64,000 nucleotides of DNA from an uncultured Acidimicrobiia bacterium (GCA_963795125.1 CAWCGQ010000004.1:701842-765841); one strand, 5' to 3'. Numbered from the stretch's first letter, positions 44,079 through 46,919 are shown. The notes: a model not told the origin generated them from the sequence alone. Translations and numbers: made by a program.

Positions 44079-44273
44079 TTAAGGTTTTGTGACGTTTTGC
44101 CTGCTCGCTCGATGTGGCGTCTTGCTGACTCGCTTCGGGACGCCGCCATCGATCGACACCGTGACCACTGAGGCTCGGTACTTCTTGTAGTACTTTCCCC
44201 GGACGCCCTTGCTGAAATCGACCTCGGGCATCTCTTCCGCTTCGACTGCAGGCTTAGCGCTGGTTTTCTTCAT
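44079..44273 (-). CDS. BrnA-like antitoxin
   Basis: [15 protein letters not shown]; overlaps the BrnT stop. Confidence 0.65.
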
Positions 44274-44539
44274 ATTCGAACCGCTCGCGCGGGGTGGCGC
44301 GCCTGGCGCCTATCAACCGGATTCTACCATCGTCGACAGTGTGGCTTACGACGAGGAGACGGCCGCGGTTGGAGACGCCGATGATCAGCATGCGGATCTC
44401 GTCGATCGAATGATCCGGGTCCTCGATCGTTACCGTATAACGGATCCGCAAATACCTCCCGGGCTTCATCGAAGCTGACGCCGTGCTTCGCGACGTTGGT
44501 CGTGGCCTTGTTGGAGTCCCATTCGAATCGCAGTTCCAC
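44254..44539 (-). CDS. brnT: BrnT family toxin; frameshift near 44445
   Basis: [25 protein letters not shown], then DPDHS..E.R..IIG...[14 protein letters not shown]. Confidence 0.85.
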
Positions 44540-44607
44540 GCGTCAGCGTTGAAGCGAACGGGATGCCTCAAGTGAAGTTGCGCATTATCGAAGGATTAGA
44601 CGATGGT

Positions 44608-45148
44608 GGCTCAAGGCCTCGGCAGTTCTTGCCGGGCTTCCAAGCACTTCGCGATGCAGAATCTGCGATCGTTCGAGGCCGCAGGGTGTGGGTGCATATA
44701 GCTCGGCGCGGTAATCGCAACGAGTATCTCTCGCCGTTTTCGGCTCATCTCGCCGGGAAAATGTCGCTCGGCTCGTCAACGGATCGTTCGCCTGCGCTCC
44801 ATTTTCCGGGTCACAGCTGCGCGTCGGCTCGTTCAACGAAAACGTCGAGAGACACTCGTTGCACCGCGCCTCGGTTCAGGTCATCTTGCTCGCGCGCCTG
44901 TCTTTGCGGCCACGGCGGCGCTCAAGCACTCGCCGAGTCGTGGCGCCTGGTGATCCCTTTCGGGGTCGCCGGTCAGTTCTGCGATCTTCTCGATCAGGAG
45001 CCTGGTTCGGAGTTCGAGGCTGTCGATGTCGTTCGGGCCTTCCATTTGCGACGACGGTAGCATCGTCGATGGCGACGGCGACCGACCAAAGATCGCGTCG
45101 ATTGCAGATAGGTCAGTTGACTCGCAATCAGCCGTTTGCCGCCCGCCG
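44608..45148. repeat. Duplicated block A1, containing a diverged hairpin core at 44705-44873
   Basis: Colinear and highly similar to 46123-46585, with about 80 extra bp near 44885-44965. Confidence 0.9.
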
Positions 45149-45167
45149 ACCAGGAAGCGCGGGAGGG

Positions 45168-45340
45168 TTTGCCAACGTGAAGATTCGCGCCGGCGACGCG
45201 GTGTTCCTGCGCACAGGGCGCCGGCCGCAGCGCGCCGAGAAGGGGCCGTGGAACGTGGCGAGGAGCTCGGCCGGCTTCCACGCCTCGGTGATGCCGTGGC
45301 TGAAGCAGCGCGACGTGGCGCTGCTTGCAACGACGCTGTC
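45168..45340 (+). pseudogene. Internal fragment of a cyclase (kynurenine formamidase-like) gene
   Basis: VKIRAGDAVFLRTG...KGPWNVARSSAGFHASVMPWLKQRDVALL with no matching start or end. Confidence 0.55.
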
Positions 45341-45399
45341 GACGACCTGCAGCCCTCCTTGGGCGGGACGGGCTTTCCGTTGAATCCGCTCGCGACGTT

Positions 45400-45708
45400 C
45401 TAACTGCGCCCGGCCTCGCGCGCGGCCCATTCCCGGGCCATCGCGAGCATCGCGTCTTTTACTTCAGGCCAGTCGTGCAGTGTGGACGGGTCGAAGTCGG
45501 CGTCGTTGGGCCAGACGAGGGTATGAAACTCCTCGTCGAGTCGAACCGCGTTGAACATGCGCAGGTCCCTCAGCGGACCGAACAATTGCCCCTCGAGCAT
45601 CCCTGAAAAGTCGATTCGGCGCGTCAGTCCATCCTCGAACGAGACCTCGAGTTCATACGGGCCAACGATGGAAAACGCGGTGACGCGATGCAGTGGGCGG
45701 TGTTCCAT
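45400..45708 (-). CDS. DUF2442 family protein (putative antitoxin)
   Basis: LEVSFEDG..RRIDF...G.LFGPL...F..V......TLVWPNDADFDP.TLH. Confidence 0.82.
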   Translation of the reverse strand: MEHRPLHRVTAFSIVGPYELEVSFEDGLTRRIDFSGMLEGQLFGPLRDLRMFNAVRLDEEFHTLVWPNDADFDPSTLHDWPEVKDAMLAMAREWAAREAGRS

Positions 45709-45711
45709 GAT

Positions 45712-45981
45712 TCACATCAGCGGGTCAATCTTGAACGATGGTTGCCCGGATTTCAACAGTTCCCAGTTCGTCACGAGTTCATGCTGATGGATCGTCGCCC
45801 ACGCTTCGACGAGTCGGCGTTGTGGCGCCGGCAGTTCCCCGGCGAGGGCCGCCAGCGTGTCGATGGCAAACACCGCAGACCACTGCTGGTATTTCGCGTG
45901 GAAGTGCGGTCGATGATGTTGAATGTCGCGCTCCGAGAACATGCGGATGACGATTCCATAGAAACGAGAGATCTCGGGCAT
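45712..45981 (-). CDS. DUF4160 family protein (putative toxin)
   Basis: MPEISRFYGIVIRMF...HHRPHFHA.Y...LVEAWA.IHQ.EL..NW...KIDPL. Confidence 0.85.
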   Translation of the reverse strand: MPEISRFYGIVIRMFSERDIQHHRPHFHAKYQQWSAVFAIDTLAALAGELPAPQRRLVEAWATIHQHELVTNWELLKSGQPSFKIDPLM

Positions 45982-46122
45982 GACCCCGAGGTTGCGAAGC
46001 GGATGCCGAAGGCAATCTTCACGATTCCCGAATGAATCGTGACGCGGCACACGGCAGGGTGGCAGATTCTGCTGAGGCCGCCGCACGGTGGTCGCGCAAG
46101 AGTTGCGGCCGACGATTCACCA

Positions 46123-46585
46123 GGCTCAAGGCCTCGGCAATTCTTGCCGGGCTTCCAAGCACTTCGCGATGCAGAATCGGCGATCGTTCCAGCCGCAGGG
46201 GTGTGGGTGCATATAGCTCGGCGCGGTAATCGCAACGAGTATCTCTCGCCGTTTTCGGCTCATCTCGCCGGGAAAATGTCGCTCGGCTCGTCAACGGATC
46301 GTTCGCCTGCGCTCCATTTTCCGGGTCACAGCTGCGCGTCGGCTCGTTCAACGAAAACGTCGAGAGACACTCGTTGCACCGCGCCTCGGTTCAGGTCATT
46401 CATCGCCGGTCAGCTCGACGATCCTTTTGATCAGGAGCCTGGTTCGGAAGTCGAGGCTATCGATGTCGTTCGGGCCTTCCATTTGCGACGAAGGTAGCAT
46501 CGTCGATGGCGACTGCGATCGACCAAAGATCGCGTCGATTGCGGATAGGTCAGTTGACTCGTGATCAGCCGTTAGCCGCCCACCG
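46123..46585. repeat. Duplicated block A2, containing a diverged hairpin core at 46220-46388
   Basis: Second copy of 44608-45148. Confidence 0.9.
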
Positions 46586-46861
46586 TTTAGCCATCGCGGC
46601 GAACTCCGCTTCAACGTTGGGCCAGTCATGCAACGTGGCCGGGTCGAAGTCTGCGCCGTTTGGCCACACCAGCGTATAACCTTCGTCGTCGACCCTCACG
46701 CCGTTGAAGACAGCGAGTTCCTTCAGGGGCCCGAACAGTTTCCCTTCGAGAACCCTCGTGAATTTGATGCGACGCGTCAGACCATCATCGAAGGTGACGT
46801 CGAGCTCGAAGGGGCCGACGATTGAGAACGCCGTCACGCGGTACATCGGATGGTGGTGCAT
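46565..46861 (-). CDS. DUF2442 family protein, second copy
   Basis: Paralog of 45400-45708 (RVTAFSIVGP, TLVWPNGADFDPATLHDWP). Confidence 0.82.
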   Translation of the reverse strand: MHHHPMYRVTAFSIVGPFELDVTFDDGLTRRIKFTRVLEGKLFGPLKELAVFNGVRVDDEGYTLVWPNGADFDPATLHDWPNVEAEFAAMAKRWAANG

Positions 46862-46871
46862 TAGCGGCCCC

Positions 46872-46919
46872 TCACAGCAATGGCCTGATCTTGAAGGATG
46901 GCTGACCGGAATTCAAGAG
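46872..46919 (-). pseudogene. 3' remnant of a second DUF4160 gene
   Basis: Reads LLNSGQPSFKIRPLL*, versus LLKSGQPSFKIDPLM* in the intact copy. Confidence 0.65.

Follow-up and report, generated by a model that had tools for sequence, protein, structure and literature searches.

A hairpin repeated amid toxin–antitoxin operons belongs to a dispersed quasi-palindromic repeat family of Vicinamibacterales

Imperfect-palindrome intergenic repeats of about 100–150 nucleotides (nt) are known as ERIC/IRU in Enterobacteria and as Correia/NEMIS in Neisseria, the units of REP repeats are shorter hairpins of 20–40 nt, and the attC sites of integrons, 57–141 nt in length, are bulged hairpins that follow small gene cassettes, often of toxin–antitoxin (TA) genes. 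Here we analysed a stretch of 64,000 nt (hereafter, the window) from a genome deposited as an uncultured Acidimicrobiia bacterium (GCA_963795125.1, CAWCGQ010000004.1:701842-765841), in which an imperfect palindrome of about 175 nt, named E, occurs in each of two repeated blocks among TA operons at 44079-46919. E is a subfamily of lineage-specific, quasi-palindromic intergenic repeats of 170–220 nt from Vicinamibacterales (Acidobacteriota). We favour, with a probability of roughly 0.55, the view that it is a dispersed repeat within a variable island of defence and TA genes, where its block acts as a homology or fragile site for rearrangement.

The first block occupies 44608-45149 on the plus strand and consists of a tail (44608-44683), a core (44684-44884) containing E (44703-44878), a 78-nt insertion (44887-44964) and a flank of repeat family D6 (44965-45149), the far end of which resembles the last codons of a DUF2442 gene. 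The second, at 46123-46586 on the same strand, has its tail at 46123-46198, its core at 46199-46399 with E at 46218-46393, and a D6 flank (46402-46586) overlapping the DUF2442 3′ end. A repeat search recovered the pair as a 277-nt repeat at 97% identity (44608-44884 and 46123-46399) plus a 197-nt repeat at 88%. When aligned, the blocks have about 460 nt in common, with 166 of 185 flank positions identical (89.7%), the indel of 78 nt, 201 nt across E that match without a single difference (44684-44884 equals 46199-46399) and 68 of 76 tail positions identical (89.5%), and outside these limits the sequences flanking the two copies are unrelated. At 10% divergence, a perfect 201-nt run has a chance of about 6e-10, and the tract closely matches the limits of E.

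At this locus, the outer stem of E is 9 bp long and is followed by a one-sided bulge of 4 nt and an 18-bp stem around a structured interior, with folds of −52 to −63 kcal/mol (z, −6.0 to −7.1) that none of 200 shuffles equalled; the copy in the first block folds at −52 kcal/mol (z, −6.59). Each of the two block copies scores 182 bits with R1, a covariance model built from copies of the window subfamily. An earlier note, made by reading the window, had described the same hairpin in two blocks amid TA operons as a diverged version of a core at 38.7–40.5 kb. All the elements it listed are present when the minus strand is read, and the block copies are 87–89% identical over 170 nt to five E copies in that array. 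The alignment also bore out its account of the stem changes (one compensated pair and one A·C mismatch) and of the bulge, which is GGAT in the array and TAAT here.

By blastn, the core occurs only at this locus in the window's own genome (G000, 5.16 Mb in four contigs, C1–C4, with the window on C4), and in 10 of 194 genomes of the family. This uniqueness holds for the window subfamily only: R2, a general, family-level covariance model, finds 13 copies in G000, seven in the window, three on C2 and three on C1, the six outside the window being diverged. [quoted passage not shown] With R1, E was detected in 25 of 37 genomes of the genus, a tally that includes one weak match in G025, with up to 13 matches per genome. 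With R2, matches came from 22 of the 151 family genomes sampled (13 of 17 in genus g1 and 6 of 17 in genus g41); as no more than 15 candidates were scored in each genome of this sample, the counts are lower bounds, and G028 and G007 each have at least 15 matches. A pattern scan of 185,579 species genomes returned 98 loci, 55 of them true by R2, and all 45 true loci listed by title come from metagenome-assembled genomes (MAGs) of Acidobacteriota/Vicinamibacterales or from three MAGs labelled Acidimicrobiia, one of which belongs to the same genus as the window's genome. A viral collection gave one match to the family pattern, at 35398-36117 of a 43.6-kb record (L225; pattern match only).

The family holds its shape while its stems change. 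An alignment of 47 copies (A4) revealed a common architecture: the outer stem is short and GC-rich, 3–4 nt bulge out on one side, a stem of about 20 bp changes in sequence from one subfamily to another yet remains paired, and the interior is asymmetric and contains conserved motifs (CTCGCCGGTCAAA, GCCTCCGCTC.ATTTG and GTCGGCTCGGTCGAACGC). Outer stems, too, vary among subfamilies. The consensus structure contains 33 pairs, 24 of which show changes on both sides, and 95.8% of 1537 cells are paired, compared to 77.4% after shuffling and 35–45% when the partners are slid. The covariation score was 0.459 versus 0.131, a level reached by none of 500 shuffles. One-sided (G–U) changes number only 0–2 per pair, and this near absence of G–U pairs argues for maintenance at the DNA level rather than an RNA function. 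Our search of the literature, as far as the sources it reached extend, returned no description of the E repeat family, and the best reading is that the family is new in sequence and unusual in combining variable stems with a conserved interior.

E is best read as a repeat of the ERIC, Correia and REPIN kind. Like ERIC and Correia it is a long intergenic imperfect palindrome near gene ends, found in either orientation and in tens of copies, with size variants produced by internal insertions, conservation at orthologous sites and no enzyme of its own. Unlike them it is larger (170–220 nt) and limited to Vicinamibacterales, its outer stems vary by compensatory Watson–Crick changes around a conserved interior, and no target duplication of the TA-dinucleotide type was seen; there is no sequence relationship, and the resemblance is one of kind only. 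E also has the terminal inverted repeats and dispersed copies of a MITE, with arms of at least 27 nt and 13 copies in G000. Among nine copies of the same subfamily aligned with 70-nt flanks, the ends are sharp (GCGCGC-TTA-CGCGCG ... CGCGCG-A-CGCGCGC), with no evident direct duplication.

E is one of several hairpin families in this genome, which contains 187 long hairpins compared to 6 in a shuffled 780-kb contig. Two more families, of 250–300 nt and 11 copies each, form alternating tandem arrays (C1:2093194-2094438, C3:202531-203963, C3:635187-635791 and C3:643982-644737), several of them directly beside E. A related hairpin is nested between E arms in genome G034 (L027:15314-15605) and follows E in G005 (L028:8898-9108).

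The array at 38.7–40.5 kb contains five plus-strand E copies within 38821-40509 (38821-38996, 39083-39258, 39500-39675, 39917-40092 and 40334-40509), which belong to repeat family D1, score 204–214 bits with R1 and have 27-nt inverted arms 94 nt apart. They are preceded on the same strand by a collapsed partial copy (38722-38773; repeat families D4 and D7; 32.8 bits with R1), in which alignment shows the beginning of the left arm fused to the final part of the right. Tandem Repeats Finder reports a period of 417 nt at 39028-40506 (3.5 copies, 98% matches): each unit comprises a hairpin of about 176 nt and a spacer of about 241 nt, and the last four units are in tandem. The array is thus an amplification of one 417-nt unit and not the row of independent empty sites that the earlier note had suggested. 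For the spacer, ordinary sequence of a relative provides a homologue, 39266-39492 being 79% identical to L200:6123-6345 of G036, where a Lys-rich gene and a PP2C response-regulator gene are also present. In the window, a Lys/Ala-rich protein of 147 residues without family match is encoded at 38271-38714; it adjoins E in G000, G013 (L227) and contig L238, lies near the restriction gene in G036, and could be a nucleoid-type DNA-binding protein.

With the blocks included, the minus strand read from 46919 to 44079 carries a DUF4160 remnant, a DUF2442 gene, the second block, a DUF4160 gene, a DUF2442 gene, a cyclase fragment (on the plus strand), the first block, BrnT and a small open reading frame (ORF). 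The remnant (46872-46919) retains, in translation, the last 15 codons of a DhiT-like gene and ends ...LLNSGQPSFKIRPLL*, where the intact copy ends ...SGQPSFKIDPLM*; with the DUF2442/DhiA-like gene at 46565-46861 (minus strand; PF10387, E-value 1.2e-10) it forms TA unit 2. Unit 1 consists of a DUF4160/DhiT-like toxin gene (45712-45981, minus; PF13711, E-value 2.8e-20) and a DUF2442/DhiA-like antitoxin gene (45400-45708, minus; PF10387, E-value 2e-11). These Pfam matches all exceed their cut-offs (72.7 bits for PF13711; 44.4 and 41.9 bits for PF10387), and the DUF4160–DUF2442 order is that of the type II DhiT/DhiA type. For unit 1, NCBIfam scores fall below their cut-offs (DhiT NF048015, E-value 2.6e-23 and 82.4 bits against a 100-bit cut-off; DhiA NF048016, weak at an E-value of 0.015), so we treat the pairs as members of the DhiT/DhiA family and not as the named equivalogs.

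Overall, the layout is two tandem units of DhiT–DhiA–flank–E–tail with a period of 1515 nt, and BrnT–BrnA lies beyond the last unit. The blocks end 69 nt ahead of the BrnT start and 143 nt ahead of the DUF4160 start, in agreement with the 70–140 bp given previously. BrnT itself is a ribonuclease toxin gene in two frames (44254-44571, minus; PF04365), with model positions 1–29 in the frame of 44324-44539 and positions 28–77 in that of 44254-44571; the frameshift, near 44440, may be an assembly error. In the BrnA position is a 64-residue ORF overlapping the end of BrnT (44079-44273, minus; an ORF call) that matches nothing in Pfam, NCBIfam or PADLOC, so that of the BrnT–BrnA pair reported earlier BrnT is matched, though in two frames, and BrnA is a putative label. 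The cyclase-family fragment (45154-45402, plus) is a weak match to PF04199 (E-value 0.0039; 17.8 bits, cut-off 23.1); it is 85–89% identical to L027:14309-14712, and adjoins the hairpin in G034 too.

We next consider the contexts of E in relatives, surveying 30 copies at 21 loci in 12 related genomes, with genes called by a heuristic based on GC content at third codon positions (GC3) and 70 flanking ORFs compared to Pfam. E neighbours encode ExbD, CarB/ComEC, NeuB, Dus, ABC and MacB transporters, peptidases, TPR and HEAT proteins and similar, and none of the 70 was a recognisable TA gene, although two 72-residue HTH_3 genes might be antitoxin-like; a transposase-related domain occurred in one (Zn_ribbon_IS1595, L069). 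At the family level these varied neighbours count, by the refuting test that the earlier note had set itself, against the hairpin as a capture site. Some junctions that are occupied in a relative are empty in G000, two of them aligned (C3:19725-19757 and C4:4477-4534) and one identified from flanking-gene coordinates alone (C1:63612-63694). At other loci the same orthologous site is occupied in two species, upstream of NeuB in G012 and G008 and beside an ABC transporter gene in G017 and G036; G017 also has paired E copies.

The island around the two blocks differs from its surroundings. Called genes at 44000-53700 have a GC3 of 0.74–0.76, compared to 0.81–0.92 elsewhere in the window. Beyond the DUF4160 remnant is a PLD nuclease–helicase–DUF3427 gene of the type IV, methyl-directed restriction kind (46979-50103, minus, in three frames; Pfam PLDc_2, ResIII, Helicase_C and DUF3427), an intact homologue of which, at L027:10865-13957, is called mREase_IV by PADLOC (E-value 1.2e-268). 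Of 194 genomes in the family, 44 have this restriction gene; it is accessory, belongs to defence and serves as the anchor of the island, with E downstream of it. PADLOC also identifies a Mokosh-like helicase gene at 51497-53656. A low-GC3 segment with three TA operons, the restriction gene and the Mokosh-like gene is consistent with a horizontally acquired defence island. Genes split into two or three frames are frequent at 34570-50103 (beta-lactamase-family, aminotransferase, RCC1, bPH_2, BrnT and the restriction enzyme); so many split genes in a four-contig assembly suggest indel errors, and the frameshifts in BrnT and the restriction gene are not to be read as pseudogenes unchecked.

The gene content beside E differs between relatives. 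In G029, the restriction gene lies directly beside the 302-residue gene and the aminotransferase gene that bound the window's island, and in G007 a DhiTA pair occupies the restriction locus with no E there. At the syntenic restriction locus of G034, the cyclase fragment is followed by E and then by a gene for a Gp49/RelE-type toxin, and homology to the window stops at base 44700, which is the outer end of E. A scan of soil metagenome contigs for the window's E subfamily revealed 13 contigs. In three of these (L235, L237 and L230), a DhiT–DhiA pair lies between E and a tannase gene, and in two others (L233 and L226) E is enclosed by the same tannase and PAS-GAF genes and the pair is absent. Contig L238 shares synteny with the window's left side, and in it DhiA and then DhiT come after E; in the remaining contigs E stands beside BrkB, TetR, acyl-CoA dehydrogenase, MacB and PP2C/Lys-rich genes. 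Of the sequence words that we sampled, 5–7% were present in each of six public DNA runs, and the public runs listed as holding them included no RNA run.

The cassette turnover foreseen in the earlier note was thus found in part: content beside E does differ, both in G034 and among the metagenome contigs. In L235, stretches of a (GGGATCA)n array, situated 3′ of E, enclose the variable DhiTA cassette, which is not bounded by a fixed base within E, and partial E arms surround a full copy. This heptamer array lies between the tannase gene and E, at 1380-1466 in L233 and, in reverse complement, at about 530-575 and 1305-1335 in L235.

Together, we consider these patterns best explained by a repeat that takes part in rearrangement without being dedicated to it. 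E copies are dispersed over many kinds of locus, are gained and lost between species, duplicate in tandem, and are nested with or set beside other hairpins. A block of about 0.5 kb containing E could then serve as portable homology, as a fragile long palindrome, or as both, and recombination at it, of the RecA type or illegitimate, would add, remove and homogenize neighbouring cassettes. The purely Watson–Crick covariation would reflect maintenance of the DNA, either through templated correction of the quasi-palindrome or through hairpin formation on either strand. On this account, homology or fragility of the E block may have a role in the turnover of cassettes.

Several points weigh against this explanation. 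A role of E in promoting recombination is our inference. The nine-copy alignment shows no evident target-site duplication, the alignments of filled and empty sites are diverged, and our searches identified no mobilizing enzyme. A tract of perfect identity that closely coincides with the limits of E is a better fit to a process specific to E, be it selection, homing or exchange at a specific site, than to ordinary gene conversion, and the presence of DhiTA beside this E subfamily at two unrelated loci, variable at one of them, goes beyond a purely incidental association. Finally, E is polar: among the 30 surveyed copies, the nearest called gene within 250 nt was on the 5′ side of E 24 times and on the 3′ side 9 times, which passive repeats do not obviously predict. 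Because gene calls were heuristic and the genomes are related, this count and that of the inverted pairs described below are leads and not statistics.

A simpler account would make E a passive passenger, in which an old local tandem duplication of a DhiTA segment was followed by gene conversion and E had no role in rearrangement. The two tandem units of 1515 nt, with homologous flanks on both sides of E, are what such a duplication would leave, and tandem duplication is frequent for these repeats, as in the 417-nt array and the paired copies of G017. The divergence of the parts disagrees with it: the DUF2442 genes of the two units are 71% identical, and the DhiTA pairs of other genomes are 67–72% identical to those of the window, so the two local pairs differ from each other as much as they do from pairs in other species, whereas their blocks are 90–100% identical. 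Nor does a local duplication account for the same subfamily beside DhiTA at an unrelated locus, where the presence of the pair varies between contigs, or for a break in synteny in G034 that falls exactly at E. We regard this account as unlikely.

Of similarly low standing is the suggestion, also raised in the earlier note, that E acts as RNA, whether as an element of untranslated regions (a stabilizer, processing site or attenuator) or as a small RNA common to many transcription units. Strong covariation and conserved interior-loop motifs would suit an RNA, as would the retention of copies at the NeuB and ABC transporter sites across species and the orientation of copies near gene 3′ ends, which are co-oriented with the gene 13 times compared to 4 times not. 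In addition, a manual count of mismatched cells on the model strand found more A·C (about 25) than G·U (about 11), which could mean wobble pairs on the opposite strand. Against this, Rfam 15 gave no match at gathering thresholds across the whole window and chance-level matches only at 38600-47000 (E-values of 0.26 or worse), and G–U intermediates, which RNA helices usually contain, are nearly absent among the 1537 cells. Copies on the TA side run antisense to the orientation that prevails downstream of genes, the stem is not followed by a T-run, and no sigma-70-like promoter site was found in the block, although promoters of the phylum may differ. In G005, E follows a separate terminator-like hairpin, and the same junction in G000 has an intrinsic-terminator-like hairpin and no E. 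A function of E as an intrinsic terminator was rejected, given the stem without T-run; a terminator scan of 43900-47100 found 3 sites compared to 3.3 expected, none of them at E.

The least probable of the three alternatives holds that E is a dedicated landing site, analogous to attC or to a transposon end, at which an enzyme that recognizes the hairpin exchanges cassettes on the 3′ side. In this form, a polar hairpin would receive small defence and TA cassettes (DhiTA, BrnTA, Gp49-type and low-GC genes) 3′ of itself, as well as other hairpins including further copies of E; the enzyme would possibly be a RAYT-like HUH protein, and the solitary copies beside housekeeping genes would be unoccupied sites, all without an integron. 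Several observations suit this proposal. E copies in one orientation alternate with three TA operons in the window, two DhiTA modules of 71% identity accompany near-identical blocks, and between tannase and PAS-GAF genes the same E has DhiTA beside it in some metagenome contigs and lacks it in others. A different TA gene follows the syntenic E in G034, where homology ends at the outer end of E, and inverted pairs of E flank 0.9–3 kb of low-GC3 DNA at three loci (L061, L062 and L063). The 24-to-9 polarity is in its favour, and partial arms around a full E or another hairpin look as if E itself had been targeted. Genes of the RAYT-type HUH class are also common in the genus.

Other observations speak against it. 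We found no tyrosine recombinase (PF00589) on the window's contig, with matches on C1 and C3 only, and no conserved R-box. The polymorphic cassette of L235 is bounded by the heptamer array, the orientation of TA genes relative to E varies between loci, and most family copies have no cassette-like neighbour. The RAYT gene in the window is flanked by a different REP, and G033 has E matches and no Y1_Tnp match.

A true integron can be set aside. Across the genome, the strongest match to an integron integrase is a C-terminal fragment on C1 (TIGR02249, 162.6 bits against a cut-off of 265), covering model positions 206–315 in C1:2411061-2413923; the small genes beside it look, in translation, like MazE/MazF, HicA and similar cassette genes, and the region is probably an integron remnant. 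Neither blastn nor R2 placed an E copy near this fragment. A crude scan for attC sites by regular expression and folding, run with no positive control, gave no candidate in C4:740000-750000 and likewise none beside the fragment. E is like attC sites and clusters of attC sites lacking integron integrases (CALINs) in being a bulged hairpin associated with small, often TA, cassettes in one orientation, in being more alike between copies than the accompanying genes are, and in having cassette content that differs between relatives. It differs in lacking an adjacent integrase and a conserved RYYYAAC/GTTRRRY core, in its greater length, and in that most copies are solitary beside housekeeping genes. 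The GCAAC/GTTGC at the stem base, which contains its AAC...GTT, is confined to the G000 subfamily, with unrelated paired sequences in other subfamilies of the 47-copy alignment, and homology between the blocks runs 76 and 185 nt past the core rather than being confined to the site as for attC. With no adjacent integrase, no conserved core, homology beyond the hairpin and an amplified spacer, the attC/CALIN reading was rejected; as a copy of a repeat of about 200 bases that is dispersed across genomes in a single group of soil Acidobacteria, the hairpin is no capture site of the integron type.

The REP/REPIN–RAYT system offers a further comparison. E shares with it a hairpin form in which singlet (half) copies occur beside full ones and, as in BIMEs, mosaic arrays with other hairpin families and RAYT genes in the genome, one of them in the window. 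This gene (21466-22062, with surroundings at 21357-22110; NF047646, 104.6 bits, cut-off 80) is flanked on both sides by REP hairpins of about 30 nt (GAGAGCGACGGC-loop-GCCGTCGCTCTC), far below the length of E and unlike it in sequence; the REP 12-mer occurs 21 times in the genome compared to 2.4 expected. A 9-mer shared between the E stem and this REP is barely enriched (92 occurrences versus about 66 expected), and the similarity was taken as chance. Around the two remaining Y1_Tnp genes, the 5 kb on either side contain no long hairpin. Across the genus, Y1_Tnp (HUH) is found in 35 of 37 genomes and E in 25 of 37, with G033 carrying E and no Y1_Tnp match; E presence does not track the enzyme, and as co-occurrence does not discriminate, dependence of E on RAYT was rejected.

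Returning to the dispersed repeat as the favoured explanation, extra DNA tends to lie on one side of E, and the likeliest cause is rearrangement mediated by the repeat within a defence island; dedicated capture at E is a less likely possibility. For annotation, the locus is a warning that hairpins beside TA genes should not be taken for integron attC sites. Soil Acidobacteria are abundant and poorly studied, and the E family provides in them a clean case of strong, almost purely Watson–Crick covariation in a dispersed 200-nt hairpin, which bears on how palindromes are kept up in bacterial genomes. Lying at the edges of variable segments that include a variable TA cassette, E is also a tractable marker for the rearrangement of defence islands without a dedicated integrase at work.

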